From contig RSEE01000046.1 of the NCBI GenBank assembly GCA_003971905.1, forward strand, positions 1-64,000: a stretch of DNA of 64,000 nucleotides, given 5' to 3'. The notes beneath the pieces are model-generated. The model was not told the DNA's origin and made no database searches. It worked only from the letters and a program-made list of their open reading frames with translations. Both the position numbers and the translations under genes were made by a program. The first letter of the stretch is position 1; the number at the start of each line of letters is the position of its first letter. The stretch is from Moniliella sp. 'wahieum'. Its lineage: Eukaryota. Positions 20,330-61,146 of this stretch are shown piece by piece.

Positions 20330-20600
20330 GGGGCATGGAAAAAGTGTAGGTACTGGGGCGCATACATGTTCATCGCAGAACGTGGGCGCTCTTCAAAAGC
20401 CAACCCACGCTTTTCCTTATGTTGCGGTCAAGGTATGTTTCATCTCTCTCCTCCTGTATTGTTCCACCCATCTAACCCTTCCATTGAACAGTGGCCTTCT
20501 CTTCGTGTTGCCAAGTATGACCATCGCTTTGCCAGTGCCATTGGGGGAGTGTATTCTTTCGTCCTTAACGGCACGGCCTACGCTGCCATTGGACCCCTGG
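20330..20600 (+). mobile_element. Degenerate Helitron Rep/helicase N-terminal fragment
   Basis: GGMEKV/CRYWGAYMFIAERGRSSKANPRFSLCCGQG resembles the Helitron N-terminal Cys-rich motif. AFSS/VAKYD..GGVYSFVLNGTAYAAIGPL resembles the following AFTS.G..D..G.YxFxxxGxxYxxIGSL block. No Rep or helicase core follows. Confidence 0.6.
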
Positions 20601-24799: not shown

Positions 24800-25420
24800 A
24801 TTCACACCATTGGCCTTTCCCCCTGGCATGAGCGCAACGGACCGGGCCAAAGTGCACCAACTCTCTGAGCGCTTGAGCCTGCACCATCTCACCATACAGG
24901 ATCCCGAGCCATACGTGATTATTTCGCACAACCCGCTGCGTGACCCAACTCAGCCCCCACGCCGAGGCACAGCAACACCCCATCCTCCCCGCATGAGCCA
25001 CGTCGCGGGATGACGAGTCCCCTAACGGGGATTCCGAACCATGCATCGTATCGATTGCGCCCTCAAGTTTCTCTTGGCCTACTCCCAACCAACATGCATG
25101 CGACTTACGGGGACACTTCTTCCGGTCTTTTGACGCCTGGGGGGTACTCGTCGTCCGGCACCCGCTTTCTGCGCACCAAGAAGTCAGCCCCAGCCATGAC
25201 TTATGTCGGGCGTGATTATTCCTACGACGACCCGATGCGCCCTCCGTTTTCCTAAGCTTCCCTCGGTGTTTGAGTCCCCCGCCAATCCCGGCTTCGACGA
25301 TTCACAAGGTGCTGATAGTCTGACACACCTAAGTGCCGGGATGGGCAACCTGTCTGTTGCGGATTCGGCCGAAATGATGCACGCGGCCGGCGGGCAAGGG
25401 TTGGGATACGATTCACAGTC
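24800..25420 (+). pseudogene. R3H-domain gene fragment (Pin4/Cip2-like C-terminal part, tentative)
   Basis: LAFPPGMSATDRAKVHQLSERLSLHH fits the R3H consensus (RxxxH). Downstream LRTKKSAP. No upstream RRM, and the ORFs are broken. Confidence 0.45.
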
Positions 25421-34900: not shown

Positions 34901-36962
34901 GGACCCGTACATGCCGGTGCGCCAGCAAGCCGTGCACACATGGAAGGCGCTCATCATCAACACGCCTCGCACTGCTCGTGAGATTCTGCCCAAGATGATC
35001 GACATGATATTGGCCTCCTCTCGGCTCCCGGGGTGGAGCAACGTGAGATTGCCGGCCGCACCCTCGGCGAACTGGTGCGCAAGCTGGGCGAACGCATCTT
35101 GCGGGACACGATCCCCATTTTGCGCAACCGCGGGGTCACGTCGGACCAGGTACCAGTCCGTGCCGGTGTGTGTGTGGCGGTCAACGATATTCTCACCCAC
35201 GCTACCAAGAGTACGTTTGCCATCTTTTATTTTACGCTTGGGCTTTTGATACTGACCGCCTCTTGCAGACCAACTGGAGGACCACGAGGACACGATCATT
35301 GCCATATCCGTCACGGGCTTGTGGATTCGTCCGAGGTGGTGCGGCACGCGGCCGCGCAGGCGTTCGACACGGCGCAAGAGATTCTGGGTGCGAAAGCGAT
35401 CGACGACACGATCCCCACGTTGCTGGAGGCGATGGCCGACCCGGAAAACCCGGGTCGGGCACGCGCTGGCGGCGCTGCGCGAAGTATGCGCGCGCGGGCA
35501 GAAGTGGTGTTCCCGGTGCTGGTGCCGACGCTGACCCAGCAGCCCATTACGGGCTTCAACGCGCGCGCGTTGACGGCGCTGGTCAGTGTATCGGGCCGTG
35601 CGTTGAACCAGGTGCTGTCCAACATTCTCACCGCCTTGGCGCTGACGCTCGAGCGCCATGCTGCCACCATGCCGGCCGAGGAAAAGGAGAGTGTGCAAGA
35701 AGCGGTACGGGCCAACTTGGCTTCTGTCGCGGACGGAGAAGGCTTGCACCAACTCATGATGCTCCTCCTTGGCTGGGCGGGCAACTTGGCGCCCGAGCGC
35801 CGCGCGACGGGTGTGCCTTCATGGGTACGTTTGCCGGCGTGATGCAGTCGCAGCTGTCGCTGGAGGATTACCGGGTGCTGTGGCTTCGCAAGCTGCTGGC
35901 TCTGTTCGAGGAGGAGGAATCGGTGGTGGCGTCGGCGCGGGAAGCGCTCGAGGCCGTCTCAAGACGGTGCCCAAGGCGGAAATCGAGACGATGTGGTGCC
36001 GGTGCGGCACATTGTCGACAGCTTGGGCGAGTCGGTTCCAGGCTTTTCGCGGCCCAAGGGCATTGCTCCCTTGGTGCCAGTCTTCCTCGCCGGTCTGCTC
36101 AACGGTACGGCCGAGCAGCGGGAACAGGGCGCGTACGGGTTGGCGGATCTGGTGCAACGGACGGAGGCCGCGCACGTCAAGCCCTACATTATCCAGATGG
36201 TCGGACCTTTGATCGTGCCTGTGGCGACCGGCACACGCCCGCGGTCAAACAGGCCATCTTGCAGGCGCTGACAGTGATCTTGGACCGTGTCCCGGCGCTC
36301 TGTCGGCCGTTCTATCCCCAGCTGCAGCGCAGCTTCCAAAAGGCGCTCAACGACCCCAGCTCCTCCACTGTCCGCACCGTGCCGCCCACGGACTGGGCAC
36401 GCTCATGCTGTACCAGCCGCGTGTGGATCCGGTCGTGGGCGAGCTGGTCCAGACGATCGGCCAAGGCCTCGGCACGGCGGCTACGGATCTACAGTTGATC
36501 GCCGAGTCGTCGGCTACGGCGCTCATCTTGGTGCTGGAGAAGGCGCCTGCCAAGAACGTGTCGGCCAAGACGTGGGCGCAGGTGGCGGAGCTGTGCCAGA
36601 GCGCGTTTGGGGACGAGCGGGAGCCGCTGAAGCCGTTGGTGGGCGACCTGGGGGCTGGTGGCCGCGTCGGCGGCGGCGGCAGAAGGAGGGGAGGTGGCGC
36701 AGCGCGTGCAGGCGATCGTGGAGCAGGACGTGATGGCCGACACGGACGCGGCGTTGGCGGCGAATGTGGTGCGCGGGCTGGTGCAGCGGGCGCCCGAGCA
36801 GTTCTACACGCTGTCCAAGCCGCTCCACCGCCAGCTGCTGGTGCTCGTGCTGCAGTGGATGGGGCAGACGGCGGCCGTGGCGCGTCCGCGCGCGAGGCGC
36901 GCGACGCAATGCGCACCGCGGCGGCCTGGAAGAGCGACGCGTTTGTGCAGGACCACCTCTAG
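28960..36962 (+). CDS. GCN1: Translational activator Gcn1 (HEAT repeats)
   Basis: Roughly 2600 codons. [119 protein letters not shown]. Introns 29689-29757 and 35211-35268. Many frameshifts. Confidence 0.96.
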
Positions 36963-37598
36963 TGCGCTGCGCGTGAGGCGCCATCGGGAACACGCTCGGC
37001 AGCATGTGGAAGGCGCTCAGCGCAATCATCTGGTGCTGCTGTCGCAAGATAGCCCAATGCTGATGCGAGAGTTGCAGATCACATGCAGATAACATGCGAC
37101 ATCACATCACAGCAACAGCGTGGCTGGCGCGCTCCAGCGTGGCGCATGCATGTTGCCACCCACGCTTATAGCTGACCAACCCACGCGTGACGCATGATGC
37201 GTGAGCGCGGACATGTCACAGCCAGGGCAGTAGGGTTGGCTCAATCGCGGAGATGCGCTGCTGGCGCGGGGGGCAGCGGGGCAGCCGGCAGCGCTGGGCC
37301 GCAGCAGCACCCAGATTCGATCGCGGACACTGCCGTCGTGCGGGCTGAGGCGCGGGGGCCGCCTGGGTTAATGCGTCATGTCCGCCCCCGCACGGGCGAG
37401 TCAGGCAGGGCCCACGCCCGCCCGCACGGAGGAAGTGCCCGCATGCGCCCCCCCTGTCGCGCCTGCACGCAACACCAACGGAGAAGAAATGTCCGGTGCG
37501 GAAAAGACGAGAAGACCCCCCCCAGGCGGTCCTTTTAACGCGCGCTCACAGCGTCTTCCCCCGTCTCCGCCACCTCCTCCGTCTCGCCTCCCCCCGCC

Positions 37599-39785
37599 AT
37601 GTCTGCCTTCATGCTCCGCAGGCGAGTCGCCGCCCAGGCCCACGCCCTTGCCGCCCCGCCTGCTGCCCTTGCGCTGGCCGCCCCCCGGCCTTGTCCTCCC
37701 CGGTCCTCGCTGCGCTCCGCCATGCCTCGGTCCGTCGCGCTTACTCGACGCCCTCCCAAAAGCCAGTGCCGTGGCTGCTGCTGCCTCCAACATCAAGTAC
37801 GTGTGCGCCCACCCTTCCTTCTTCCTTCTCCCTTGCGCTCTGGTACTGACTGACCCTTCTGTGTTATTGCGCTCTGGTGCAGTGAGTACACGCGGCCCAC
37901 CTGCCCCCTCGTTCCAAACCCCCGAGCCTACTCCGGAGCCATCACGAGCCGAGGAGGAGCAGCTGGACCACTCCTTTGTCGGCATGACGGGTGGCCAGAT
38001 CTTTCACGAGATGATGATGCGCCACGGTGTCAAGCACATGTTTGGCTATCCCGGTGGGGCGGCCTTGCCTGTGTTTAGTGCGATCCACAAGTCGCCGCAC
38101 TTTGACTTTATCCTGCCCCGGCGCGAGGACGGTGCGGGCCACATGGCCGAGGGCTACGCTCGTGTGTCGGGCAAGCCCGGTGTGGTTTGGTTACCTCGGG
38201 TCCGGGCGCGACGAATGTGGTGACGCCGATGCAAGATGCGCTGTCGGATGGGCTTCCGCTGGTTGTGTTCTGTGGCCAGGTGGCGACGAGTGCGATTGGC
38301 TCGGATGCGTTCCAAGAAGCCGACATGGTTGGCATCTCGCGCTCCTGCACCAAGTGGAACGTGATGGTCAAGAGCGTGGACGAGTTGCCGCGTCGGATCA
38401 ACGAAGCGTTCAAGATTGCCACCTCGGGTCGCCCTGGTCCGGTGCTGGTCGACTTGCCCAAGGACATTACCGCAGGTGTGTTGCAGCACCCGTTGCCCTT
38501 TTCCAGCACCCGCCCCAACGAGGCGGCGCTTCCTTCCCGCGCCACGGCCGTGCGCCGTGCCGCCGTTCCCGCCCCCACCACCTCGGCCCCGTCTTGTCCT
38601 CGCCCATTTCCGAGGCAGCGCGTCTGATAACCAGGCCAAGCGGCCTGTCATTTACGCTGGCGCGGGCATCCTCTCCTCGCCCGAGGGACCGAAGCTGCTC
38701 GCTCAGCTTGCCGAGACGGCGAGCATCCCCGTCACCACCACCCTCCAGGGCTTGGGTGCGTTCCCCGAGACGAACGAGCTGTCGCTTCATATGCTTGGCA
38801 TGCACGGTTCGCGTATGCCAATTTGGCCATGCAAGAGGCGGATGTGATTATTGCGCTGGGCGCTCGGTTTGATGACCGTGTGACGGGGCGGGTGGATGAG
38901 TTTGCGCCCGTGGCGCGCAAGGCGGCGCTCGAGGGCCGCGGCGGCATTATTCACTTTGAGATTATGCCGAAAAACATCAACAAGGTGGTGCAGGCACGTG
39001 TGCGATTGAGGGAGATGTGGTGAAGAATTTGGGAGCCATGTTGCCCCAGGTGAAGGCCGTGCCCAAATCCGATCGCCAGCAGTGGCTCGAGGCAATTCAG
39101 TCGTGGAAGGAGAGGTATCCGTTTACGTTTACGCCTTCGGACCCGGCCAAGGGGGAGATGCTCAAGCCGCAAGAGGTGATTACTGCGCTCGATGCGGCGG
39201 TGACCAAGGCGGGCCGTAAGGCGGACACGATCTTGCCACGGGGGTCGGGCAACATCAAATGTGGGCGTGCCAGTTTTACCGATGGACCGACCCGCATACG
39301 TGGGTTCCTCGGGCGGCCTGGGCACGATGGGCTTGGTGTGCCCTCGTCGATTGGTGCCAAGGTGGCGTCGCCCGAAAAGACGGTGGTGGACATTGATGGC
39401 GATGCCTCCTTCTCCATGACGGCCATGGAGCTCGCCACGGCAGCGAGTTTGGGATTGGGTCAAGGTGCTGGTGCTGAACAATGAGTTTCAAGGAATGGTG
39501 TTGCAATGGCAAGATTTGTTCTACAATGCCGAGTATGCGCACACCAAGATGACCAACCCCGACTTTGTCAAGCTGGCCGAGGCGATGGGCATCAAGGCGC
39601 TGCGGGTGGACAATGCGGCGGACTTGCCAGCCAAGATGGAGGAGTTCCTCAACTACCCTAACGACAAGCCCATCTTTATGGAGGCGCGCGTGACGCGCAA
39701 CGAGCACGTGTTCCCCATGGTCGCGGCGGGCAAGGCGTTGAATGAGTTTATCGTGCACGAGTCGCTGCGGGAAAAGAGCTCGTGA
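37599..39785 (+). CDS. ILV2: Acetolactate synthase catalytic subunit, mitochondrial
   Basis: Arg-rich presequence; [89 protein letters not shown]. Intron 37797-37882. Confidence 0.97.
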
Positions 39786-40568
39786 GGCGACGGAACCATG
39801 GTCATGCTGCTGCTGCTTTGCCTCCTCTGGGCTAGTGGGCGCACGGGATCGCATTTTGTTGGCCGTGATGGCTGCACTCTACTCTAGCTTTGCACCTTTA
39901 TGTTATGTATACCGCATGTTCCCTTATTGGCCTTTTTTCCTGTCTCGCTCTCCGTCTTGCTCCCTGTTTGCTTCCTGTTTGCTCCCTGTTTGCTCGTTCG
40001 ATGGCGGCGGACGAGTAGCACTGCTCGATCTGGCCAACGAGCGGATCAGGTCGCCCCAAAACTGAAATGAAACGCTCTGTCGTCGAAGGATGTTGTGGTG
40101 TAGACGACGTAGATGGGGAGGCAGAGGAGTCGGACGGCAGCCGGCAGAGGCCGTGTAGAAGCCACAGCAAGCCAACGGGAAGGGAATGTTGATTGATCGG
40201 CACATGTGGGGTGGCTGTGTCGGTGCTGTGATGTGCGCGTTTGGTTGGCGATGCGTGGGGGATGCGGTGCTGTAGCGAGGGCACGTGAGGCGCGTCGGAG
40301 TCCCGCGGTTGGGGGTGGCGCGGGCTGGGCGTGGCGATGGATATAGGACAGGCGATAAGATGAAACGCTGCAGGGCTCAAGCGGCATCGGGTACGGGGGC
40401 AGTGTCTGCGGTGGTCGTGACGCGTGACGCGTGACGCTGGAACTGCTGCGCCGACAGCAACACAACACCTGTCCCCGTCGATTGCGCAGCTTAAAAAGCA
40501 GGCTTATCGGCGCCTCTCCTGCCCCATCCCATCTCCTCCCATCCCATCTCCCCCCCAACACCACCCCC

Positions 40569-42767
<2,199 letters not shown>

Positions 42768-43494
42768 CGTCCCTTGTCTTTCCGAATGTGGTCTTCCCTC
42801 TTTGTCCTTCTCTCTATCCTCCCCTCTGCTTCCTTTCTTCCCCTCCATTTGCATACCCCCCGTGGTTCTTACTTTCCGTGAATCGCCACCAACGCTAAGA
42901 TCCATGGTTGTGCCCACTCGAGGCTGTGCGCCTTCATTTTCATCCTCCAATTCGTACATGGTCTATGTTATCTCCCGGAGCGTTCATGTAATGAAGAGCT
43001 TTTGCAGATAGAACCAAGTGGGTGGGGCGGCAGGTGTGTCTCTCTGTTCACTATACCCAGCTAGGCAGCTACAATAGGCGCAGAAATGCCAGATATAGAG
43101 AGTGAATCGACAGTATAACTGCAGCTCCTCTATCCTCTTATCCTTCCGTCCACTTCCACGGAACACCTCACCCGCATTTGACCGCGGGGCGAACCGATTG
43201 ATCGAGCAACTGTATGTTGAACGAGAGAGACAAGATGCATCTATTAACCCCACCACGCACAGAAGAGGGGGTTGAGTCTTTCCCCTCCGACCCCATATTC
43301 CCCCTTCACCATTAGCATACTATCACACACAACTGGCAGCCAGTCTTGCGCCTACTGCGTCCAACAAACGAGTTCTACACCAACGAAAAACAACCGGGGT
43401 TCAAACAGGGGCTTAACACAACTCATCCCCTGAAGTGGGACCCATGCTTGAAGGCAAGCATGGGGCGAACGAAATGGAAAGAGAGGGGGAGGGG

Positions 43495-44331
43495 TTACTC
43501 TTTGCTTGTCGTCGGTTCGCCTTGGACTCTTCCTTAGCTGGTTCGGTAGCTTCCTCCTTGGTCTCCTCCTTGGGTTGTTCCTTGGGCGCCTCCTTGCTCT
43601 CCTTCTCGATCGGCTCCAGTGTCTCGCCCTTCTGAGCTTTCTCGAAAGCAGCTTTGAACGCTTGGGCGTCTGGGGGGAGCAGAGTCAGTACAATACAAGT
43701 CACCAACAACGCGCAAGCACGTACTCTCGGCATTGGCAAAGCGGATGGCCAGCGTCTCGGCTTGCGGCTCGCCGTCCGACACATCGGCAGCCACATTGTA
43801 CACCCACGACCGGTCCGAAGACACATTGGGCTTGAGCTCAATGTCGGACGTGACTGGCGAGAGGGGGTAGGTATAGGCACGTCAGAATCCAAACGGCATG
43901 CGGGGGGAAAAGGGGAAAACGTACTGTAGTGGTTCGCGCACACCTTGAGCGTCTTGTCCCGGCGCATCACAACACGCACCTTGTTGGACTCTTTGTGTTG
44001 GAGCAGGCGCACATCCCCGGTCCCACGCTCTTTCCACTGCTTGCCCTCGGGGTCGAAGCGGAAAAGCTTGGCACGGCTGGGGCATGAACACGAGAGGGAC
44101 AAAGGGGGAGAGGTCAGTGTCAGTGGTCAGCCGCCATGCCAGGACATGCGCCCAACTCAAAGGAACAGCAATGCTCACATCTTGAAAACGACATTCTCAT
44201 CCTCTTCGAACGTCTTGGTCTCCACCTGCTTCTCAAGCTTGATCACCGGCTCGTAATGGGGGGTCATTCTCCTCGCCGGGATCGTTGCCAGTGGAGGCAA
44301 GCGGGTCGTTCTTGGGCTCCGTCGCAGACAT
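43495..44331 (-). CDS. YRB1: Ran-binding protein 1 (RanBD)
   Basis: [68 protein letters not shown]. Introns 44077-44178, 43854-43924, 43670-43724. Confidence 0.96.
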
Positions 44332-44711: not shown

Positions 44712-47700
44712 ATGGTCGGCCCCGCCGGCCCGCCACCGGGCTTTTCCGGCCCACCGCCTGGCTTCCCGGCGCCTCCGCCCGCCCCGGGCGAGCTTCCGCA
44801 CCTGGACCAGGCCACCCTGGCGTCCAAGTCGCGCAAGTGGAAGCAGTAGCAGTCTCTCCGCTTTGGCGACCGCAAGGGTAAGACTGCATTTGTCGATCCG
44901 GGCAAGCAAGAGATGCCGCCCGAACACGTGCGCAAGATCATCAAGGACCATGGCGACACGAGCGACAAGAAGTACAAGACCGACAAGCGCGTCTACCTTG
45001 GCGCACTCAAGTACGTGCCTCATGCCATATTCATCGCAAGAATCTGCACTATCTCCACCTTGATTACAATATGAACCTCAAGCCGGTCGAGACGCTAACG
45101 ACCAAGGAGCGCAAGAAAAGTCGCTTTGGGAATGCCTTCCATCTGATCCGTGAGATTGCCCGCTTGGTCAAGATGGTAGTCGATGCCTTTGTCCAACACC
45201 GCTTGGGCAACATTGACGCGTTTCAATTGGCCGATGGCCTGCAGTACCTGTTCAACCATGTGGGACAGCTGACGGGCATGTACAGGTACAAGTACAAGGT
45301 GATGCGTCAAATTCGTGCCTGCAAAGACCTCAAGCACGTCATTTACTACCGCTTCAATTTGGGTCCTGTGGGTAAGGGCCCCGGTGTTGGCTTTTGGGCA
45401 CCGAGTTGGCGTGTGTGGATGGCGCTGCTGCGTGGGCTAACGCCGCTGCTGGAGCGATGGCTGAGCAACTTGCTCTCGCGCCAGTTCGAAGGGCGAGACA
45501 ATCGCAACAAGTCCATCACCTTGACCAAGCAACGTGTCGAGTCTCACTTTGACCTCGAACTGCGTGCGGCTGTGCTTCATGACATTCTTGATATGATGCC
45601 GGAGAACATCCGTCGGAGCAAGTCCAAGACGATTATGGCCCACATGACAGAAGCGTTCCGTTGCTGGAAGGCCAACATCCCATGGAGGGTGCCGGGTATG
45701 CCCGCTCCAATCGAGAACCTCATTCTGCGTTACGTCAAGTCCAAGGCCGACTGGTGGACCTCAGTGGCGCACTACAACCGTGAACGTATCCGCCGTGGTG
45801 CAATGGTGGACAAGACGGTGGCGCGTAAGAACCCGGGGCGACTCACTCGCTTGTACCTTAAGGCCGAACAGGAGCGACAGAATGCGTATCTCAAGGACGG
45901 TCCCTACCTCACTTCGGAGGCAGCTGTGGCTATTTACACATCGACAGTGCACTGGCTCGAGTCGCGGCGCTTCCAGCCGATCCCCTCTCCCTCGCTCAAC
46001 TTTAAGCACGACTCGAAGATTTTGGTACTGGCGCTGGAGCGATTCAAGGAGCAGTACAGCGTCAAGGGCCGGCTCAACCAGCAACAGCGGGAGGAGTTGG
46101 CCCTGATCGAGCAAGCGTTTGACGAGCCGACGGTGACCCTGGCGCGCATTAAGCGTCTGATGCTGACGCAACGCGCGTTCAAGGAGGCCTCGATGGAGTT
46201 TTTCGACACATATGAGAAGCTTATCCCCTGCTTTGATATTGAGCCGATTGAAAAGATCACCGATGCGTACTTGGACCAGTACCTGTCGTACGAGGCCACC
46301 CGTCGTGATCTCTTTCCAGCCTGGATTAAACTGTCGGACACAGAACCGGCGCCACTGCTGGTGTACAAGTGGTGCAACGGGATTAACAACCGACGTATGG
46401 GAGACAAAGGATGGCGAATGCGCCGTCATGATGGAGACGAACTCTGAGCCGAGTGTACGAGAAGATCGACCTTACCCTTCTCAACAGGTTGCTGCGCCTG
46501 ATCATGGACCACAACTTGGCCGACTACATCACCTCGAAGAATAACATCACAATTGTCTGGAAGGACATGTCCCACGTGAACCAGTACGGCCTAATCCGCG
46601 GCCTTCAGTTCTCGGCATTTGTCTTCCAGTACTATGGCTTGATTCTCGACCTTCTCGTCCTTGGCCTCTCGCGCGCGACAGAGATGGCGGGGCAGCCGCA
46701 AATGCCCAATGGATTCCTTCAGTTTAGCGACAAGGAGACCGAAACCCGTTACCCCATCCGTCTCTATTCCCGGTACATTGACCGAATCCACATGATGTTC
46801 CGATTCAGTGCCGACGAGTCTCGCGACTTGATCCAGCGCTATCTCAGCGCCAACCCAGATCCGAACAACTCGGGCATGGTCGGCTTCAACAGCAAGAAGT
46901 GTTGGCCCGGGACGCTCGTATGCGACTGGTCGAGCACGATGTCAACCTGTCTCGCGCCGTGTTTTGGGACATTAAGAACCGCATTCCTTGCGCTCTGACT
47001 ACGATCGAGTGGGATGACACCTTTGTCAGTGTGTATAGCAAGGACAACCCCAACTTGCTTTTCTCGATGCTTGGGTTTGAGGTGCGGATCTTGCCGAAGG
47101 TTCGGGCAAGCGAGACGCAGGACACACGCGTGATGGGGTCTGGTCGTTGGTACAGGCTTCCTCGGGCGAGCGGACTTCCCAAGCTCACATCCGCGTTTCA
47201 GACGCCGGAGTGTTGCATTTTAACAACCGCATTCGCCAAGTCCTGATGTCAGCCGGTGCGACAACCTTCTCCAAAATCATCAATAAGTGGAACACGACAC
47301 TGTAAGTTTGCTTGTCTCTGACGTATTCTGACCGCAGGACTGACATGTGCCTCCTTTTCTTCAGCATTGGGTTGATGACATACTATCGTGAGGCGGTTGT
47401 GTATACCGAATCGTTGCTTGATTTGCTTGTTAAGGCGGAGAACAAGGTGCAAACCGGAGTCAAGATTGGGCTCAACTCCAAAATGCCTTCTCGTTTTCCC
47501 CCATGCGTCTTCTACTCGCCCAAGGAGATTGGCGGGTTGGGGCAGCTGTCAATGGGCCACGTTTTGATTCCGGCTAGCGACCTTCGGTGGAGCAAGCAAA
47601 CCACCACGGGCATCACGCATTTCCGCTCCGGTCTGTCATCCCAAGAGGATAACTTGATCCCCAATTTGTACCGGTACATCCAGCCGTGGGAAGCTGAGTT

Positions 47701-48091
47701 TATTGACTCTGCCCGAGTGTGGCAAGAGTACGCTCAAAAACGGCAAGAAGCGACTGCCCAGAATCGCCGTCTCACGCTAGAAGATCTGGAAGACAGTTGG
47801 AGTTGAGGTGTCCCAAGGATTAACACCCTCTTCCAGAAGGACCGCACCATCCTCTCCTATGACAAATTTTGGCGGGTGCGGCACGAATTCAAGCAGTACC
47901 AAGTGCTGAGGTACAACACCTTCTGGTGGACCGACCAGCGGCACGATTGCAAGCTTTGGCAACTCAACAACTACCGTGTTGACGTGATTGCCGCCCTTGG
48001 TGATATTGAGACTATCTTGGAGCACACACTCTTCCCTGTCACGGGCTTCCCCTCTTGGGAGGGTCTTTTCTGGGAGAAGGCGTCGGGCTTT

Positions 48092-48129
<38 letters not shown>

Positions 48130-50659
48130 TCGCTCGGGTCTGTCGCAGATTCCCAACCGTCGCTTCACTCTCTGGTGGTCTCCCACGATCAACCGTGCCA
48201 ACGTCTATGTTGGCTTCCAGGTCCAGCCGGACTTGACGGACATCTTTATGCATGGTAAGCTGCCCACGCTCAAGATCTCTTACATCTCCATCTTCCGTGC
48301 CCATTTATGGCAAAAGATCCACGAGGCAGTGACGATCGACTTGGCCCAGGTATTTGATCAAGAGATGGAAGCGCTCCAGATGAGACTGTGCAGAAGGAGA
48401 CCATTCATCCGCGCAAATCGTACCGCATGAATGCTTCGTGCGCCGACCTGCTCATCTTTGCCAGTTACAAGTGGCCTGTTAGCAAGCCCTTCCTCTTGTC
48501 CGAGGCGCGAGACGAGTTGACTGGCGCGAGCGCCAACAAGTGGTGGATCGATGTCCAACTTCGTTGGGGCGACTTTGATTCGCATGACATTGAGCGTTAC
48601 GTGCGTGCCAAGTTCCTGGACTACACCAGTGATGCGACCACCTCCATTTACCCTTCGGCCACGGGCGCGTTAATTGGAATTGACTTGGCGTACAATCAAC
48701 ACTCTGCGTACGTCAATTGGTTCCCGGGGAGCAAACCCCTCGTTGCTCAAGCCATGACCAAGATCATGAAAGTCAATCCGGCTCTGTACCTTCTTCGGGA
48801 GCGTCTGCGAAAGAGCTTGCAGCTTTACAGCTCCGAGGCCACCGAGCCCTACCTCAACTCGGGCAATTACGCCGAACTATTCAGCAACCAGGTCATCTGG
48901 ATGGTGGACGATTCGGGCGTGTACGCTGTTGCGATTCATCGCACGTTTGAGGGCAATTTGGTCACCAAGCCGATCAACGGTGCTGTGCTCATCTTCAATC
49001 CTCGTACGGGTCAACTCTTCCTTAAAATCATCCACACCTCAGTTTGGGCAGGGCAGAAGCGTCTAAGCCAGTTGGCCAAGTGGAAGACGGCCGAAGAGGT
49101 GGCTGCACTGGTCCGTTCTTTGCCCATTGAAGAACAGCCCAAGCAGGTGATTGTCACACGCAAGGGGATGCTTGACCCCCTCGAAGTCCATCTGGTCGAC
49201 TTCCCCAACATTGTGATCAAGGGCTCGAAACCTCAGCTGCCTCTCAAGGCGATCATGGAGCTGGAAAAGATCCGGAACATGATCCTACGAGCGACCCAAC
49301 CGCAGATGGTTCTTTTCAACTTGTACGACGATTGGCTCTCCCGCATCTCGCCCTACACTGCTTTCTCCCGCCCGATCCTCATCTCCGTGCACTGCACGTT
49401 AACCAGGAGAAAACCAAGATCATCCTTCGTCCCAACGTCCAGACCGTGACCGAGTCCCACCATCTATGGCCCAGCTTGTCCGATGAGGAGTGGATGAAGG
49501 TGGAAGTGGAGCTCCGCGACCTGATCCTGCACGATTATAGCAAGCGCAACTCGGTTAACGTGTCGTCGCTGACCAACTCGGAGATTCGGGACATCATCTT
49601 GGGTACGTTTTCTTTCCTCCTTGTGGCTAATAATACGATGGAATGCTGACAGCCAACACTTCTGCTCAGGTATGGAGATCCAGGCTCCTTCGGTTCAACG
49701 GCAGCAGATGGCCGAGATGGAGAAGAACGCCCAAGCCGGTTCGCAAGTGACCGCAACGCAGACAAAGACACACAATGTGCATGGCGAGGAGATCCAAGTG
49801 GTCACTACAACGCTGTACGAAAACCAGGTGTTCAGCTCCAAGTCCGATTGGCGAATTCGCGCTCTGTCATCGGCCAGCCTCCCCTCCGGACGCAGCACAT
49901 CTACGTCTCGAACGACGAGGCCAAGGAAGATGCCGGGACGCTGACCTATGTGATGCCCAAGAACATCCTCAAGACATTTATTGTCAACTCGGATTTGCGC
50001 ACCCAGGTGGCTGGCTTACTCTATGGCCTCTCCCCGCCCGATGCGCCGGCAGTAAAGGAGATCAAGGCGATCGTCTGGGTCCTTCAGAGGGGCACCACTA
50101 CCAGCGTTGAACTTCCCAACGATCTGCCGCAGCACGACTTTGTTCTCAAAGACTTGGAACCGCTCGGCTGGATTCATACCCAGGCCCAAGACCTGCCCCA
50201 CATGCCGCCCGTCGACTTGGTCACCCACAGCCGGATGATGGCCAACCATATGCCGAGTGGACAGCATCAACCATTTGCGTCTTCACCGCCACGTTCACAC
50301 CCGGCTCGGTCTCGTTGACTGCCTACCAGCCCACTGTGGCCGGGTTCGAGTGGGGCCGCAAAGCCAACCCGACCGAGGTGATCGCGGGGAACCTTGGTGG
50401 TTTCCAACCCAGTATGGCAGACAAGGTACAGCTGCTGCTCTCGGACCGCATACTTGGCGCTACCTTGACGCTCACGTCCGGCGCATGGAACTACGGGCTG
50501 TCACTGTCGGCGCAGTGAACTGCGACGCTAAAGTATGCCCTCACCCTCGATCGCCCCGCCGCGTTCTGGGACGAGATCCACCGCCCTCAAAATTTCTTGT
50601 CCTTTGCCGTCAATGAGGGCGAAGATGACATGGCGGATATTGAGGATTAGTTTGCCTAA
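44712..50659 (+). pseudogene. PRP8: PRP8 (U5 snRNP core spliceosomal protein), apparently decayed copy
   Basis: Unambiguous Prp8 motifs throughout ([88 protein letters not shown]). In-frame stops at 44847, 47804, 50516, 50648 and a large N-terminal deletion near 45028. Introns 47302-47364 and 49603-49669. Confidence 0.85.
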
Positions 50660-51425
50660 GGTCGTCCCTTGGTTGTCGCGACGCACTGTCCATTTCACCG
50701 CGAACCGGTTGCCAAGATCCGATTCGCCCCCGCCGGCGCATGCGCCCTACTATATATGGCAACTGGATCAATTCGTTCGTCGTGTGCGTGAAACTGTGCA
50801 TTAGTAGTCATATAGACCAGAGATCAGGTGGCTGCACTGCAGCCATCCCACAGAGCAAAGCCACCAAGACAACGATCCGTGGTGCGACTGTGGGTGGTCC
50901 AACAAGATCACAAGAGAGAAGAGGTGCAAGGTGCAGAACAAAGGATTGAACGTTGAACCTTGAGCTCAAGGCAAGCCGTCACTCGCGGGTGAACGATGCA
51001 GTGGCAGTGGCGGGAGAGGATGAGTACAAAAGGAACATGGGAGTCTCGTGGCTACCACCCGTTGCAGACAACACGGAACTGATCACGGCAGACTATCCGG
51101 TGAGTGGGTGTACTATGGATCGGAATCGTTTATGGTATGGTCGGAAAAGTCCAGTCCCCAGAACGTGTACCAGGGATGCATCGATTGATAGGGCCCTCTG
51201 GGCTCGGCATGATATAGCCAACTAAAGGAAAGGGCAGAAGATGACAGCGAGCCCACCAGACCAGAGGGCAAACAAGACACCGATCCGTCATGCGATACGA
51301 TCATGCAAATGACCCTTTCAGGAAGCCCGGGAGGGGAGGGGGGGGGAGGGGTGTCAGGTGCAGGGAGAGCAGAGTGTAGATCGGATGGAACAAGGAAGGG
51401 AATACACCAGACTGAGAGACGATAG

Positions 51426-54400
51426 CTAGACTGCGCCGCCGACGATTGACGCCATCGGTCAAGCGTCGTGCCGCGTTGGGCATCAAGCCCATGCCGGGAA
51501 GGGGGGGCACAACGGGGCCCATCGAAGGCACCGAAGCGGAAACCATACTACGTGCCCCGGGCGGGGGAGGGGCATACCGGGGGGCAAGCCGGGCGGCATG
51601 CCCATTGGCATGGGTGCACCCATGGGGGGAACGGCATCATGCCCAAGCCCATGGGCGGCATGCCCATCCAGTTGGAAGCGCGCTGGCGCTCAAGACGTTC
51701 CTTTTCAGCTTGCGCCTTCTCCTTTTGGAGCTCCTTGATCAGAGCAGCCTGCTGAGCAATGATGGCTGCTTTGGATGGGCGACACCCAGCAACTCCTCGT
51801 CGCTCTCCGATTCATCGTCAGAGCCAAGCTGGAACATGTCCTTCTCCCCGTCGGCCTGGGGAGGGGAATTGTCTTCCTTGATCGCCTCGATTTCGGCACG
51901 CAGCTTGCGCGATTGTTGGCGCTGTTTCTTGGCCAGAGCTTGGATCTTGGCCAGCTGTTCTTTGTGGTCAGGATGCACCACGCCCAGGGGGCATCGTCCT
52001 CCTCGTCCTGATCCGATTCCTCTTCCGCAAGACCCATCTCATCCATAAGGGTCTGATGCTTGCGATTAGCGAGTTGCGACAGGGGCATCTCATCTTCCGA
52101 ATCCTCCGCCTTGCGGCCCATCAATTGGTCCAGAGGCAAATCCTCCGATCCTTCCGAATCCGAGTCGTCGACACCAGGAATTCCCAAACCACCGCCAAAG
52201 TTGGCTCCCAAATCGAGGGTTTGAGTATCGTTAGCAGCAGCGGTTTGCTTCGCAGCTTCCGGACGCCCTCAGACCACAGAGACAGATTGGTCGTGCTGGC
52301 AGCTTTCTTGGCCTTGCGGGCATTGTCACCATCTTCATCCTCCTCCTCTTGGGCGGGAAACCACTCTCCTTCATCCTCGGCGTGCGCAGCGAGCACATCC
52401 ACGTCCAACGTAGGCGCGTGTCCACTTCCAGCGTCACCCCCTCCTCCACTAGCCTCTTCCCGAGTGGTAGACAGGGTAGCCACATCCGCCGGGCGGGCCG
52501 TGCCAATGGAGCGCAAGTCGGACGTAGATGTGGAGGGAAGGAACTCGAGCTCGGGCTCTGGCTCGACCCACTTACCCTCCCGAATGAGCCGTTGTTTTTC
52601 CTCTTCTGCCTCGATCGCATCCGCCTCTTTGCGGCGGCGCATCTCGGCTTGGTACAGTTCGCTGTGCGAAGAACCAAAAACAGCGGCCATACGCTCCCGA
52701 GTATCGTTAGTACCGAGAGGGTTGTCCTTGAACGTGCCTGCCGTCTGGGCCGAGGGGGGATGGAAGAGCCATCGCCCACATCCACCGCCAACAAGTCGGC
52801 TTCGCCATAAAAGCTAACAAGACGTCAGAAGAATTCACACACAAGGAACCAGGAATCTCAAGTGAAGGGAAACGTACCGAGTTTGCTTTTTTCCGCGTTT
52901 TCCCCCTCTGCTCAGCCAAGTCGAGCAGACTCTTTCCATACAAGGTCCGCAGCGGGCCTTCATCAACCCAACGGTCGCCTCGCTCTCTTCCGAACTGTCC
53001 GACTCGGCCGACGTATCGCCCTCGGACGCATCCCCCCATTCATCCGGAGACGAATCGTCAGAGATAGCTCCGCCTTCCCAAATGCCGCCCGAAGCAACAA
53101 TCTCATCGCGGGCACGGCGCTTACGGCGACGCTCTTTGCGTCGTGTACGCTTTGCCTTGGCAAGCTTGCGCTTCTGGCGAGCTGAAAGCTTGAACCGCGC
53201 CTTGCGTCGCTCTGCCTCATCCGTTGCATCCAGGATGGTCGTCTCGGCCAACGCTTGGGTATCCCACCCCCACCCATCCTGGTCGGCAGGATCGTGTACC
53301 AGGGGGTTCCGGAACAGCGCCGTGGTGGCCGTTGCCGCTCGTTCGCGCAGCGCTGGCGGCGCGTCCGTCGGAACGGGAACCACAGCGCGGCCGCTCGATC
53401 AGAGCGGAGGAAGGCGTCCACCGCTTCATCCGCTTCCTTCTTGCGTGCCATCGCCTTGGCCCGCGCAGCCTCCCGGTCCTTGGCACGTTGCTCTGGGTCC
53501 CGCGTACGCAGGTCTCGTCGATTCGTCGTCCGAGCCGCCGCCGCTTCCACGGTGAGGAATCGTACGGGAGGCAAACTGCGGCCGTCATGCAGCACAAATC
53601 CGGCGGGACATGCATCCCTTTTGCGGCGGCGGCACGACCGGAAGGTTGGTCGTCGTCCAAGTCGGCGATTTGAGCGCGTTCCTGAGCAATCAGCTGACGC
53701 TGGAGCTGGACCTGCCTCATTCCCGGCGGCAGAAGCTGGATCAGTTGAGTATTGTTAACCAGCGGCTCAGGCATGACCAAGTTAGTGGACAAACGGGCAT
53801 CGACGCCGCGACGGGCGAGCCAGCCCACGTTTTGACGGCGGTGCCATTGGCCGGTGCGTTCATCATAATCATTTCGTCCTCTTCGTCATCCAGCAAGTCA
53901 CCCAGTTCTTGCGGCCCGTCATCCGACCGGCCGAGACCGAGGCGGAACATGCTCTTGCGCTGTTCGGCTTTCCTGCGCTGCGTATCGTGGTTGGCTTCAG
54001 ACTCAAACGCCGGCTCGGCAGTACGTTTTTTTCCGCTTAAACAAGCCCCTGCCACGATCCGTCCCCTTGTCCAACTCGGCTCGGGGTCTAGCAGATTGGG
54101 CCGCCCCACATTCTCAGACGAGTCAAAGCGCGTGTCGTCATTATACTCGGGCAAGGTACCACCGGCGGCAAGGATCTGCAACTGACGGGTGGTGCCATCC
54201 ATGGGCATCGAAGTGGTTCCTCGGTCGAGCGGCGAGGGCGCAGCATCCCCAAGGGGCATCATCTTCATCGTCGGTACCCATTCCGTTGGCGTTCAAATGG
54301 GTAGGAAAGCGTCCAGCATCGCCGGTGGAAAACTCGGCAAAGGGGTCACCGGGCACCGCACCCTCCCGGGCGAGAGGGACGTGGTGAGGTCCAGGCGAGG

Positions 54401-55763
54401 GGCACGAGGCGCTGACATGGTGGCAAGGAAGGCCGATCCAGGACGGCTCAAGGCAGCATGAGCCGCCTCCAAAGCACCCACACCAGCCCAATCGTGACCG
54501 GTCTCTTCCGCCTCTTGATCAAGAGCCGGGCGGGACCAAGGTCCATCTGTAATTCCCCCCCATTCTCAGTAGGATTCGTCTGACCGGGTAACTGGAGGCC
54601 AAAAAAGGAGTCCCCAGCCGTAGACACGGGGCGAGAGCGAGGATAAAACAGCGATTGCTCGTCAGGATGGGTCGAGGTGGTTTGAACCGAGGCAAGGTCT
54701 GCACCGCCATCCTGGGATTCGTGCCAGACACTACCAGTGATGGCCGCAACACTTTGGCGATGGTTCTGTCCTTCCTCGGTCTGGTGACGCGCGTCAAGGT
54801 CGCGCACTTCTGGCGAGCCAGGGCGAGAAGCCGAGCCAAGCGGCTCTGTATTCTGCCGATAGGCAGCAATCCGAGCCATCAATGCCGGATCAGGCGTGTG
54901 GACGTGCCGGCTGCTCGCGATGGAGCGAGAACGGGTGCGAGAGTGGGAATCGGACACCCCACGGGCCATGGCAACCGAGCCAATGGCCTCGCTATCGGAC
55001 ACGGCCCCGTCACGCGTCTCGGTGGTCTGGCTGAGAAGTGAGGTGCTTCGCATCCTGGGTTCGTCTGAGCGGATGGGCGAACCCAAGGAAGAGGACCGCT
55101 GGCGTTGGCGGGCTTTCAGCACCTTGTCCCGCTCGTCGGCCGAGAGAAACTTGTCCACCCCCCATGCGGAGAGGGCGTCATCATCTGCACCTGGCGCTCC
55201 CTCTCCATTGCCCTCCATGGCAGCACCATCCGGGGACGCAGAGTCGAGGTGCACATTGCCATGGTCCGACAGTCCACTGAGAAAGCTGCGACGGCGAGCG
55301 TCCTGCTCCGAGGGGAGATCGACACCAAGCAGGTTGGGAGACACGGCATCCAAGTCGGGATGAGCGGAATGAGGAGTGTCGTGGGCCAAGTCAGGGGGAG
55401 GAGCAAGGGGTGGGGTCGGGGGAGGAGCGGTCAGGTGGGCGAGCGCAGCGGCGTGGCGGCGGCCATGTCGGCGGCGCGGGCCTGGGCGCGGGCCAGGGCC
55501 TCGCGGGCAGCGTCATCGTCGCGGAAGGGAAGGAAGATGGCCGAGTCGGAGGCGAGCTTGAGCGGAGGGAGGGGGTGGGGCACAAACGGTTCGCGCAGCG
55601 CAACTTCGGCCCGGAGGCCGACGGGCAGGGCGGCGTGTTCGGCGGCATGAGCGGCCTCGCGCTCGCTCTCGGCGGCGTGCAGAGCCTCGACCCACTCGTT
55701 GTCGGCCTCGATGAGGGCAGCGGCGAGCTGGAGGCGCGCATTGATGCGCTTGGTCAGGCGCAT
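51426..55763 (-). CDS. Large low-complexity uncharacterised protein
   Basis: Chain of minus-strand ORFs with coherent composition (RINARLQLAAALIEADNE; ALSAWGVDKFL; LVMPEPL; YGKSLLDLAEQR; VFGSSHSELYQAEM; acidic and Gly/Met/Pro-rich C-terminus). Intron 52814-52877. Both ends approximate. Confidence 0.65.
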
Positions 55764-56399
55764 GGAGCCTGGCCGCCAGCAGGGGTGGTGGTGGAGGGGG
55801 GCAGAGCAGCCCAGCGGCCATCAAACTCTGCCGCCCAGCCCCGTTGGGCCACGTGGCAGGAGCGCAGTGTTCTCCACTGCCGATCGGGAGGGGGCATTGT
55901 GCATCACGTGATGCGAATGAGTGGGGCCGGTGGCGGGCGCAGCACAGCACAGCACAGCACTGCACAACACTGGCCCAGCCCCGTCCGCAACACAACCAAG
56001 CTTCTGCGCGGCGTCACGTGCACAGCGCTGCTGGAACTCCGGCGCTTCTTCCTGTCTCCGTCCGCTTCACTCTTGAATGTGGAACATGCAACGTCCAACT
56101 TCAAGAGGAAACGTTCCGCCACACCCCACCCTTGGCAATGCCCAAGGAGGGCAAGCAGGTAGCTGGCCGTGTTCACCACCGAGAAGAGTACCTCGGCCTG
56201 CGCTTCTCCTTGACCCTCTGCGCCCGACCCGTATATCGGCGCCCCCGTGTTGGTTGTCCGTCACGTGGGCGTCACGCGCGCCAGAACCTCGCTTGTGCCC
56301 ATTGCAGCCCACAGGCTGCGCCCGAAGAATATGGCATTCAATTGCTATTACTCACAGTGCTAGTAATCGAAGCGAGGCTCCGACAGTGTTGATACTCAG

Positions 56400-57449
56400 T
56401 TAAGTACTCACCGGTCGCCACCCACCACTCACCACTCGTCCCTGCCAGGGTGCTCATCGGCTCGTGCCTATTGCTCCCACTCCACACATCTCCCCCGCAT
56501 CCTCCATCATCCCGTTGACCCCAGCCACGACACATCCAGTGCTGGAAACGCAGCCAAACCACATATCGGCATTCTCTCTCCTCCTTCTGGCCACATGCTG
56601 CTGTCGTCCCAGAGCACACACACCCGCAAACGAGCCCTCATCGGCCTGGACAGATTCCGTTTGGTTCTCCCCAGGGCTCGTTTCTGGGCCATCTCTGCCC
56701 GCTCCATCCGCTGCCGTTGGCTCTCAATCATCAGTGCCTCATTGTGGGCTTGACGCCGCTGGGCATGGAGCACCGTTCGCTCCGCCGGCTGGGGCTGGAC
56801 CGTGCGGCTAGGCAAGGGACAGGTGCAGGTATGTCCAAATGAACCCGTCCCATTTTTCGCAGTATGAACTGCTTCGCTGGCTTGGTGTGGTGCTTGTCAA
56901 ACTTGCCCCGAACGCGAGTTAGGCGAACGGGTGGAATCGGGGAACGAGGACTGGGCTGGGTCGCAACTACCTCTTCAGCAGTGGGCCCAGGCTCGGGTTG
57001 AGCAGGTTCCATCGTAGTGGCAGGCTCCTCACAAGAATGGAAACATCTTCCTCAAGATGAAGTGCATGCTCTGCAACTAGGGCATACTCCTCGACAATGG
57101 GAGCATCCTCGAGAAGGAACGGCTCTTCAACAATGGAAGGTTTCCTGGTCTCAAGAATGGTAGAGACCTCAAGAATGCTGTGATGCTGCTTCAGCAGGAT
57201 GGAGCCGCACTCCGTCACCGAAGCGGCTGGATCAGTCACCGAACCTGCAAACTTGGCTACCGACACGGCGAGCTCAACCATCGGGAAGGCGAGCGCATCA
57301 GCCAACGCGAAAGCGAGCTCAGCCAGGATGGTGCGAAGCTTGACAGTGGAGGGTGAGTGAACAGAAGAAAGACGAGGAGCCTTTGCCGTATCGCGAGCCG
57401 CAGGTTTGTTGGAGGAGGTTTTGACCATTGTTGGGAGGAGCGCTGCCAT
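56400..57449 (-). CDS. Hypothetical protein (frameshifted)
   Basis: Consecutive overlapping minus-strand ORFs 56967-57449, 56731-57012 and 56507-56815 with protein-like composition. No recognisable domain. Confidence 0.35.
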
Positions 57450-58197
57450 TCAGGGAAACCTCAGTAACGTGGGCCTTCAACGCGGGGTAGCATACTCAGT
57501 ACTCACTGGGGGGCGTGGGCGATCCGAGGAAGAAACCATGTAGCGCATTCCCTAGATTGGCCTTCCTAGCCCCCGATGATCGATTAGGTATGGAGATGAG
57601 GCTGTCAGGAAACGTGAGATGGAGGAAAGGGAGGCAGGAGTGGGATCGGTGGATGATCTGATGCATATCTATGGACGGATTGTGGAGTTCTTTGCCCCTC
57701 CGAAGGAAGAGAGGATACAGCTCTGCATAAGTGAAAACCATGATGTACGACAAGCCACAAGAGCCCCCTAATAGTAGAGTAGCATGGTGAATCTGCCAGA
57801 CGCGGCGGTCGGAGAGAGGGGAGGGGCTCAAACTCGATGATACCTATAACAGAGCTCTTCCTCGGGCCACACGTCACACATGCCACACATTAATAGAATT
57901 GGGACCATCAAAAACAAAGTACCATGTGAAGCATGGCACGCTAAACTCGACGTTTTTGTAAGAAGGGACAGTTATTGAAGGCTCGGCGACGACCAGGTCG
58001 ACGCGGCTAGTAGAGAACTCAAGAATGTTGCGTTTTGAAGAAGCGAAAAAAGAGTGGGTATCCAAAACCAGGTTCAACTTTAAACATTGTAGAGCGTTTT
58101 GTTGAGGAATTGCAGCGTAGAGCCAACGCCATTGGCCAAGGGCTGGGCCTGCAACCGCACACCATCCGAGGACCGGGGGTATAGAAGCGCCAGCCAT

Positions 58198-58761
58198 TCA
58201 AAGGCTTGCTCCCGCCGTATGCGTTCTCGTTATCCGGGTGCGTCTCTCCCTTCTCACCAAAAGGAATCCAATCGGTAGTGAAGTTCTGGGCTTGGCTGGG
58301 GTTGTCCCTTGAGAGCCGCTGAGGAGGTGGAAGAGTTGCAGGCCAAATTCAGCCGACGTGTTGTCATGGTTGCATGGGCCAACGGTAAAGTGGGTGGCAT
58401 GCGTTGTGTTGCTCACTCCCGCCACGCACTGGCTCGTGTCATGTTCCGGCGAGAAGAAGCCAAAGGTTTCGGTCCAGTATCCCTGCCACCCGCTGATCGT
58501 GCCGTGCACATCGTACACGTCGGAATCGACCGGGGTAAAGAGGAAGTGGGTGCGGGAATGCGAGTTGTCTGTCACGTCCAACACCCCTTGTTCCACCTTG
58601 ATCCACTTGTCATCGAGTCCGATGGGGAAGGGGCCAATGGGGGTGAAGAAGCTGTTGTCCCGTGTGTTCAGCTGTTGGGCCGGAGGCGTGGGCCGAGCCT
58701 TGGCCACCCCCAGTGCGAAGGCAGCGGCGAACAAAGCAGAGTTCGTGAGAGGAAGCTGCAT
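58198..58761 (-). CDS. Small secreted protein, candidate effector
   Basis: Signal-peptide-like N-terminus MQLPLTNSALFAAAFALGVAKA, paired Cys (QCVA...VGPCN), TATATA about 125 bp upstream. The true C-terminus may extend past 58198 after a frameshift. Confidence 0.6.
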   Translation of the reverse strand: MQLPLTNSALFAAAFALGVAKARPTPPAQQLNTRDNSFFTPIGPFPIGLDDKWIKVEQGVLDVTDNSHSRTHFLFTPVDSDVYDVHGTISGWQGYWTETFGFFSPEHDTSQCVAGVSNTTHATHFTVGPCNHDNTSAEFGLQLFHLLSGSQGTTPAKPRTSLPIGFLLVRRERRTRITRTHTAGASL

Positions 58762-61146
58762 GGCGGATATAAGTGTTGGGTGGGTGGTCGTGTTGTATCG
58801 ATCAACAGCAAAAAGGTGTACTCAGTAAATGCGGTGTTGGGCGGGTGGGGGGGGGCGGAGCAGCCATAGGCAATAGCCTGTGCATATATAGTGCTGGCCA
58901 CCTGCCCCGGCGTCTTCCACTCTCCTCGGCACAGCGCACGGGGTTGGGTGGCGGACACTGGCGCGCTGGCTGGGCGGACAGCAAGCCACAGTGAGATGTG
59001 ACATGTGAGCGGGCTGATGCTGATGCATGATGGCTCTCCTCGTCGCCGCAAGTCCGTGCTCTCGATCCCGGCGCGCCTCGTACCTTAAACGCCCTGAGCG
59101 CCTGGGCCTGAGCGGCTGAATAGCTCCGCAGCCCCAGAATTCTGAAAGGAGCTTGAATATTGAATAGTGAATGCTACACAGTGATGTGACCTCCGGACCC
59201 CGATGCCATGCGAGACGGCATTCAAGCACAGGAGAGGCCAATAGACGATAGGGATTGAATATTGATGGCTGGTGAGAGATAGTAGAGAGTAGCGGAGAGG
59301 GAGGAGGAGGAGGGAGTGGAAGAGGGAAGATGAAGAGCTACGACTGCTGAGGCTCCTAGAAGTGGCTGGGAGCGCCGGATGATGAGACCTGGAGTCCTGA
59401 TGATCCTCGAGGGTGATGCAAGCGCACTGGTGGTGGTGGTGTGGCAACCAGCAATGCCCACAGAGGAACATCAATCAGCGAGACCCCATCAGGGGCTAAG
59501 CTGCGGGACAAGGAGGAAAACAGGAGAGGGGAAACAGCGGAACGTTCCGCTCCTAGGCCTGAGGAGGAGCTGAAGGGACATTGGCCAAAGCAAGAGCCAC
59601 CTAGCTCAACATAGCGCGGGTCTACCCGGATTTTGTACTCGCGTTATTGTTACCGACGGTGTGGCGGCATAATTCTTTCCTCTGGCCAGAGAGAGAGACC
59701 AAATTTTTGGAGTATCAAGCCAGCGTGTAGGACCGCAAAAGACGCGCGTATACGATAGGGAAATGGAAGGCAGCTGTTATAGCAAAAAAGAAAGCGATCA
59801 ACGTGTGGGTGCTGATGGAAGAGAGGAAAAGGAGACATAGGGTTGCAAAAAATGATATAGTAGAAGAGAGGATAGCGCCGGCCACGCAGGCCCTTACGGA
59901 GGATCAGGAAGAGGTAGGCCACACGTCTCAACAATGTATTCGGTCCAATCTCAGGAGGAGGTGCACCCCGGAAGGTGGGACACGAGACAACCCCAACGCC
60001 TGTGTGGAACGCCGGGGGGAGATAGAGTTGCTTCGAATGTTGGGGCCTGTGAAATGCGCCGAGAGACTCCCACAAATATATGCAAGGGACGCACTCAAGA
60101 ACCGTTCCCACCTGTCCTATACTAGTTTGGCTGATATCGCTCACTTTTCCAATTTCTTCGTTTCGAGTGTTTCGCTCCTTCCCTGTGTTCTTCCGCTTCG
60201 CACCTGTGCCCTTGCTTCTTTCCCACGAACGATTGCTACATCATCCCTTGGCTAGTCCCGACTTTGGTATCCCTCACCTTAGCCCCCGACTATGACACCG
60301 CCCCTGGTCATGATGACAACGCGGGGGTACTATGCCACCAAGAGGGTAAACAACCGTTCTTGCCTCTCTGTCTGCAACGTTCAGCTGAACGCCCACGTTC
60401 ACATACGTTCACCTATTAATCGATCAGCTTGCTCGCCCATAGCCCCCGTTGTTTCGCCAGGAGGGTTGGTGTTGGCCTCTTTCGCGCGTGATGGCAATTA
60501 TAGAGTGGATGGTTCAGCAGTTTTTTCGTGTGGAGCAGGGGCCCTCTGTTGGGCAGAGGGCGAACCACCATGCAGCACTACAAGCGCTCGGCATCATGCA
60601 AACGTGCGCCCGGCCGACCCATCGAGGAGCGTTTTGAAGCGTGAGGCTGCAAAAGCGCCAGGCAGCGAAGGACGCGACGAGAAGAGGGGATATGGAGACG
60701 CAAGAACGCACGGACGCGAGCTACAGCGGAGGCCTCTCCGACTCAGACTGAGATCTCAGGAGCGCATCTACTAGCATGTGTGGTCCAATGCAATGTTGCA
60801 AAGCCGGGGGGCAGGGGGCTAGCTGGCTGGTGGCCCCAGTGTGCCACGCCGCTTGTGGCGGTGGGGGGGGGGCGGGCGGGCCGGGGGGCAGTGTGGCTGG
60901 GCGAGGCGGATGCCGCGGCTGGCCTCGGCTGGCTGCGCCACAGCCGTCTTCGGGCGCTGGGATTATGCGGGAGCAGATGCTCATGCTCGGCTGGCACGCA
61001 GCATCTCGCCGCTGCCTGCAACCCCCGCCGAGGGGACCGCCAGCGCGTCAGGACGCACACACTCTGCTCCCGTGAGGTGTCTGCTGCCCACCCGCCGCCC
61101 CGCCCCGCCCCGGTTGCCTCTGCCCCCGCTTCTGCCCCGACCGGCC

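Follow-up and report, generated by a model that had tools for sequence, protein, structure and literature searches.

A probable unprocessed and recently inactivated PRP8 pseudogene in the fungus Moniliella sp. 'wahieum'

Introduction

Prp8 is the core protein of the U5 small nuclear ribonucleoprotein (snRNP) and the spliceosome catalytic centre; few eukaryotic proteins are as highly conserved, and it is in wide use as a single-copy marker. To our knowledge, the PRP8 gene is usually present in one copy. Can such a gene be caught decaying in a fungal genome, or does apparent decay merely reflect errors in an assembly? This question is raised by a stretch of 64,000 nucleotides from the fungus Moniliella sp. 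'wahieum' (GenBank assembly GCA_003971905.1, contig RSEE01000046.1, positions 1 to 64,000 of the forward strand; hereafter the window), in which a first-pass annotation had described a PRP8 homologue at positions 44712–50659 as decaying by substitutions. Our sequence comparisons suggest that this interval is most probably a genuine, unprocessed PRP8 pseudogene that was inactivated recently. The earlier picture of a dead, intron-bearing copy held, and the substitution lesions were borne out; its account of the lesion types was too narrow, since the copy has not been damaged by substitutions alone but has also lost about 435 codons in one deletion and carries eight small frameshifts.

Results

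Homology to Prp8 spans the entire 44712–50659 interval on the forward strand. By tblastn and frameshift-aware alignment to four reference proteins (P0006, P0002, P0122 and P0123), the copy runs from a start ATG through the natural TAA stop (50657–50659), which corresponds to the end of Violaceomyces palustris Prp8 (...DAFA), and consists of three exons (44712–47301, 47365–49602 and 49670–50659). A piece of 439 residues encoded at 45074–46390 matches residues 523–961 of human PRPF8 (phmmer, E = 2.9e-239), and the successive open pieces match eight of eight Pfam families in the canonical order, namely PRO8NT (part), PROCN (part), RRM_4, U5_2-snRNA_bdg, U6-snRNA_bdg, PRP8_domainIV, JAB and PROCT. 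From PROCN to PROCT, this is also the domain order of functional Prp8 in human (PRPF8), S. pombe (Spp42) and S. cerevisiae (Prp8). The closest relatives of the copy are P0002 (1203 amino acids, 97% identical) and P0122 (755 amino acids, 96%), both intact and both from public short-read assemblies; the best match among named species is V. palustris Prp8, with 82% identity. The host appears to belong to the basidiomycetes, close to Ustilaginomycotina.

Four premature stops interrupt the reading frame of this copy. A TAG at codon 46 (44847–44849, KWKQ*QS), read directly from the sequence, stands where P0006 has S, and a TGA at 47804–47806 takes the place of an R found in the close relative and in 0.93 of 14 outgroup residues. 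Further downstream, a second TGA (50516–50518) faces W in Violaceomyces Prp8, and a TAG (50648–50650), three codons ahead of the natural TAA, aligns within the ...DAFA end of the same protein, giving S, R, W and A as the relatives' residues at the four sites. All four stops lie where the first-pass annotation had placed them (44847, 47804, 50516 and 50648), and alignment to relatives confirmed its claim that in-frame Prp8 sequence follows each. Its proposal of a CGA>TGA change at 47804 is plausible, as P0122 reads SWSRGVPRIN, with R at this position, and TGG>TGA would be a plausible origin of the stop at 50516. Because translation ends at codon 46 and all later segments are out of frame or interrupted, the copy cannot make Prp8. 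When both strands of the window were scanned blind for single stops within coding-like open frames, three of these four stops (44847, 47804 and 50516) were picked up; the other hits included intron sites (47303 and 41870), natural gene ends (22775 and 42765) and several low-scoring sites.

The stops are accompanied by a large internal deletion, the junction of which lies at 45027–45031. Here about 435 codons (residues 102–536 of P0006) are gone, a loss of ~1.3 kb of N-terminal-domain coding sequence, and the frame changes from 3 to 2. The tblastn high-scoring segment pairs stop and resume at 45029, and in the Pfam profiles PRO8NT is followed to position 43 of 152 while PROCN begins at 114 of 407, which leaves positions 44–152 of PRO8NT and 1–113 of PROCN deleted. 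A tblastn search with residues 1–432 of P0002 gave no match anywhere in the window. Because the P0002 open reading frame (ORF) begins with a few non-Prp8 residues just ahead of QVREVPVLYH, we infer that at least one intron lay within the deleted stretch.

Frameshift-aware alignment and tblastn show that the reading frame shifts nine times in all, through this deletion and eight small indels. Insertions were placed by frameshift-aware alignment at 46440 (1 nt), 47124–47125 (2 nt) and 50253–50254 (2 nt), and a 5-nt deletion at 46390–46391 joins GINN directly to DVWET where the relative reads GINNLQDVWET. Single-nucleotide deletions lie at 46910 (between CWP and RDARM), 48381, 49382 and 49880, the last in a run of C, and each of them could be an assembly error. 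As the errors of this assembly are small indels (see below), these four or so single-base deletions may indeed not belong to the gene. The premature stops, the missense changes, the indels of 5 and 2 nt and the loss of ~435 codons are probably genuine.

Two introns are retained in the copy, as had been claimed. Intron 1 (47302–47364, 63 nt) reads GTAAGT...CAG and contains a CTGAC branch-like site, and intron 2 (49603–49669, 67 nt) reads GTACGT...CAG. The ORF of P0002 breaks off by intron read-through at the same codon as intron 1, and that of P0122 breaks off in the same manner at intron 2, after DIILG. Because both introns sit exactly where the relative's ORFs break off, the copy is not a retrocopy; with introns at the relative's codons and no poly(A) or other A-run in the sequence 3' of 50659, a processed pseudogene was ruled out.

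To place the substitutions on branches, we polarised the window copy and P0002/P0122 with 11 outgroups (other basidiomycetes, an ascomycete, a zoopagomycete, animals and a plant). This comparison excluded P0175, which is misaligned (208 of 289 columns deviate in a leave-one-out test on Prp8), the partial sequences P0007, P0008 and P0163, P0002 residues below 433, the deletion junction, and gap or frameshift positions. Across the 1498 codons compared, 40 changes are derived in the window copy and six in the relative (binomial p = 3e-7), with a further 16 ambiguous. At the 894 codons invariant across the 11 outgroups, the window copy has 28 of its changes, as against a single one in the intact close relative. 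An earlier polarisation with 15 outgroups, in which junction and frameshift markers were counted, gave 73 differences over 1512 sites (50 window-derived, six relative-derived and 17 ambiguous).

Converted from the missense excess, the substitutions amount to an estimated 1.07–1.26% per site, a rate that predicts 2.4–2.8 stops over the whole coding sequence; four are observed. The 35 unambiguous base changes comprise 22 transitions and 13 transversions, with C>T or G>A making up 12 of the 35. The 40 changes are scattered along the gene, five gaps between neighbours being 15 nt or shorter where about five are expected at random. Radical changes at near-invariant sites had been listed in the first-pass annotation, and those in KNPGRL, PIPSP, WIKLSD, QTGVK, HDCKL, QPDLTDIF (two changes), AYVNW and KGSKPQL (two changes) proved specific to the copy. 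The change in YDKFW was weak: the site is variable and has L in the close relative, so that the replacement is L>F. Of the ten residue changes listed, nine are true departures from conserved Prp8 residues, and the confirmed changes fall at sites invariant in 11 of 11 outgroups, except E49228K (E to K, in KGSKPQL).

The relative's intron read-through tails are wholly unlike the introns of the window copy, and the six changes derived in the relative offer a further comparison. The intact 96–97% relative would most likely be another lineage, and not a second copy of the same gene, because the window copy keeps the outgroup state at all six of these sites, as random errors would not do. With the relative read as a separate lineage, the polarised changes point to a copy that was conserved for most of the time since the split and that lost selective constraint, on its own branch, only recently. 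A metagenome scan with P0002 found no DNA near enough for the ratio of non-synonymous to synonymous rates (dN/dS), the best of the 80 loci kept having 75% identity.

Whether these substitutions could be errors was judged against the error profile of the assembly itself. The two long terminal repeats (LTRs) of one retroelement are identical at insertion, and the window contains a Ty3/gypsy element (10959–17468, forward strand) that we consider young because its LTRs (10959–11719 and 16711–17468, 761 and 758 nt long) are near-identical. They differ by five gap events and by three mismatches, all within a single patch of 8 nt that adjoins a gap; outside this patch, there are 0 substitutions in ~755 columns. 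If substitutions were as frequent here as in PRP8, the two LTRs should differ by ~16 of them, and the probability of three or fewer is ~1e-4. This bound is conservative because true divergence of the LTRs could only add differences. The element carries gag, protease, reverse transcriptase, RNase H, a Tf2-type SH3 domain and a chromodomain, and its internal ORFs hop frames, presumably through the same assembly indel errors.

Two neighbouring housekeeping genes served as further controls. The acetolactate synthase gene (ALS, 37879–39776, forward strand) shows 10 frameshift events, eight of them single-base deletions and mostly outside homopolymers, with no in-frame stop and with motifs intact. 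At columns invariant in 10 closer references ALS deviates in 6 of 134 cases, while the references, left out one by one, deviate in 0–20; a set of 23 mixed thiamine pyrophosphate (TPP)-enzyme references gave only 15 invariant columns. The gene for glutamine-fructose-6-phosphate aminotransferase (GFA1, 40566–42767, forward strand) has ~9–10 frame changes, in its first 1.4 kb, and no exonic stop; a TAG at 41870 is the 3' end of its one intron (~41790–41872). The C-terminal 259 residues of GFA1 align to Candida Gfa1 (E = 2.2e-104) with one 2-residue gap, on the reference side only.

In ALS, GFA1 and the LTRs, assembly indel errors occur at ~0.4–0.5% per base. The profile of PRP8 is reversed, with few indels (eight in 5.9 kb, 0.14%) and many substitutions. 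The earlier claim that neighbouring genes carry indel-type lesions only was confirmed for ALS and GFA1, and the accompanying claim, that the PRP8 lesions are unlike the error mode of the assembly, also stood, as the LTR pair and both genes show errors almost only in the form of small indels. Because these three controls show indels, with no stops in the two genes, we take the assembly errors to be almost wholly indels and the substitutions in PRP8 to be probably real.

Upstream of PRP8 lie GFA1, ALS and GCN1, and a divergent neighbouring gene with a RanBP1 domain (43450–44331, reverse strand) begins 380 nt from the PRP8 start, measured from ATG (44331) to ATG. The motifs of this gene are intact; its frame changes once, within a run of six C near 44.26 kb. 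No repeat or transposon was found in the window at the borders of the PRP8 copy, and none of the 80 metagenome loci (best 75% identity to P0002) has a RanBP1 or GFA1 homologue beside PRP8.

Several other features of the window were noted. The GCN1 gene (29743–37000) contains an unbroken 2.1-kb ORF (30111–32249), downstream of which the coding signal shows ~8 frame changes, introns and errors counted together. A transketolase-family gene (8100–10200) is spread over three frames, with a Transketolase_C match at 9781–10206 and a weak transketolase match at 8631–9632. A 48-nt G+C-rich inverted repeat has arms 26 kb apart (10699–10746 and 36891–36938) that are 90% complementary, one just ahead of the 5' LTR of the retrotransposon and the other at the GCN1 3' end; it is possibly due to chance. 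On the reverse strand, a TGA at 55431–55433 splits two open frames of the same phase (54451–55512 and 55434–55820) that have coding-like codon scores and no Pfam match, and this TGA may mark where a gene ends or be a further in-frame stop. The long stretches 1–8000, 17500–21000, 24000–27000 and 50700–61000 show little coding signal and have no Pfam matches. The genomes of Ustilaginomycotina are compact, and against that background these stretches would be unusually sparse, a hint of a region that is degenerate or rich in repeats.

Discussion

Our results suggest a course of events for the PRP8 copy. For the greater part of its history it would have been constrained as Prp8 normally is, until this constraint was lost recently. 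Since that loss, the copy would have accumulated ~1.1–1.3 random substitutions per 100 bases, the four stops among them, and would also have lost its ~1.3 kb of N-terminal-domain coding sequence and gained some small indels. The genes of the window, PRP8 included, still carry spliceosomal introns, and we infer from this that a working PRP8 exists elsewhere in the organism, as a paralogue, a homeologue or another haplotype; a tblastn search found no second PRP8 match in the window.

An intact PRP8 could also have been given the appearance of decay by a noisy, poorly polished long-read assembly, in which case the stops, the missense changes and the deletion would all be consensus artefacts. We consider this unlikely, even though the assembly does contain many false single-base deletions, as the frameshift events in ALS and GFA1 show, and half of the eight small indels in PRP8 are deletions of this kind. 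Between the two LTRs, otherwise identical, there are five gaps and one patch of clustered mismatches, and the ~1% decay estimated for PRP8 is about as large as raw consensus error. Other observations weigh against a genuine pseudogene as well. The LTR patch, at 11258–11265, demonstrates that small mismatch clusters do occur in this assembly; the conserved ALS motif RHEQG reads RREDG; and the ALS and GFA1 controls, made without a close relative, are weaker than the PRP8 test. Indel density is uneven over 20 kb, falling to zero in the 2.1-kb GCN1 ORF (not a quantitative control, as codon-bias frame tracing is too weak to count lesions) and over the final 0.8 kb of GFA1. Polishing or coverage may have been uneven; we can only guess that polishing with short reads broke down wherever these map ambiguously. 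With quality this uneven, a local artefact at PRP8 retains some plausibility. Also, a near-length protein search found no identical ORF in other public assemblies, where 294 proteins with E <= 1e-100 among 6427 candidates were all at 82% identity or less. What speaks against an artefact is that the LTR pair shows no substitution outside its patch where ~16 are predicted, and that ALS and GFA1 keep their motifs and have no stops. PRP8 has fewer indels per kb yet far more substitutions than these two genes, the opposite of what a shared error process would produce, and its changes stand singly, scattered along the gene, with a spectrum that looks natural. Moreover, no repeat lies at the junction of the 1.3-kb deletion, and so clean a loss is not a consensus error.

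If the copy is dead, it could have been killed by a defence of the repeat-induced point mutation (RIP) type acting on a duplicated gene. Several fungal groups hypermutate duplicated DNA; a PRP8 duplicate would be a target, one stop fits CGA>TGA and another TGG>TGA, and inactivation by point mutations that include stops is common to the window copy and RIP-mutated fungal duplicates. Such an origin is nevertheless highly improbable, as the copy has neither the C>T/G>A bias (only 12 of 35 changes) nor the A+T enrichment of those duplicates. Every other class of change occurs, including the 13 transversions, G+C content is 0.54–0.60 in the gene against 0.55–0.67 in the rest of the window, and the total change is only ~1%. 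It is harder still to believe that PRP8 is functional through recoding, whether by a changed genetic code, stop read-through, programmed frameshifting or RNA editing. One TGA does align with W in Violaceomyces, but TAG and TGA both stand in frame, facing four different residues in relatives, while the gene itself ends with TAA, and ALS and GFA1 contain no in-frame stops. Recoding would also have to contend with the loss of ~435 codons of an indispensable domain and with the alteration of 28 sites invariant in 11 outgroups. The residues at the stop sites led us to reject a changed genetic code, and the mutation spectrum led us to reject RIP.

A genuine pseudogene can be compared with known systems. 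Functional Prp8 has an uninterrupted frame, whereas the window copy has four stops, eight small frameshifts and a frame-changing deletion, besides its replaced invariant residues. Like other unprocessed (duplicated or unitary) pseudogenes, it keeps introns and a native-looking 5' end and bears all kinds of lesion in neutral proportions; it is unusual among them in its parent, an essential spliceosome gene. Like a processed pseudogene, it is dead and derives from a housekeeping gene with high expression, but it differs from processed pseudogenes in its two introns and lack of poly(A). In the part of the literature on PRP8 pseudogenes that we covered, there is no report of a fungal one, which is not proof that none is in print. 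Beyond its unusual parent gene, the copy is an ordinary pseudogene.

The start codon, 380 nt from the divergent RanBP1 gene with its intact motifs, and both ancestral introns are kept, and no transposon or repeat was found at the borders, which is why we considered whether the dead copy sits at the ancestral locus of PRP8. This is possible, but we think it rather doubtful. If it does, a newer duplicate would have taken over, so that an essential gene would have changed its address while the original decays in place. Alternatively, the native locus would hold a recessive-lethal null allele, long sheltered by an intact allele carried in another nucleus, in another haplotype or in the second subgenome of a hybrid.

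Our analysis illustrates that real decay can be separated from assembly noise without reads, as the LTRs of a young retrotransposon and neighbouring housekeeping genes provide the error profile. A near-identical dead copy of PRP8 can mislead gene counts, completeness scores, phylogenies and surveys of PRP8 inteins. For the fungus itself, a dead PRP8 copy implies a recent duplication, a hybridisation or a sheltered allele.

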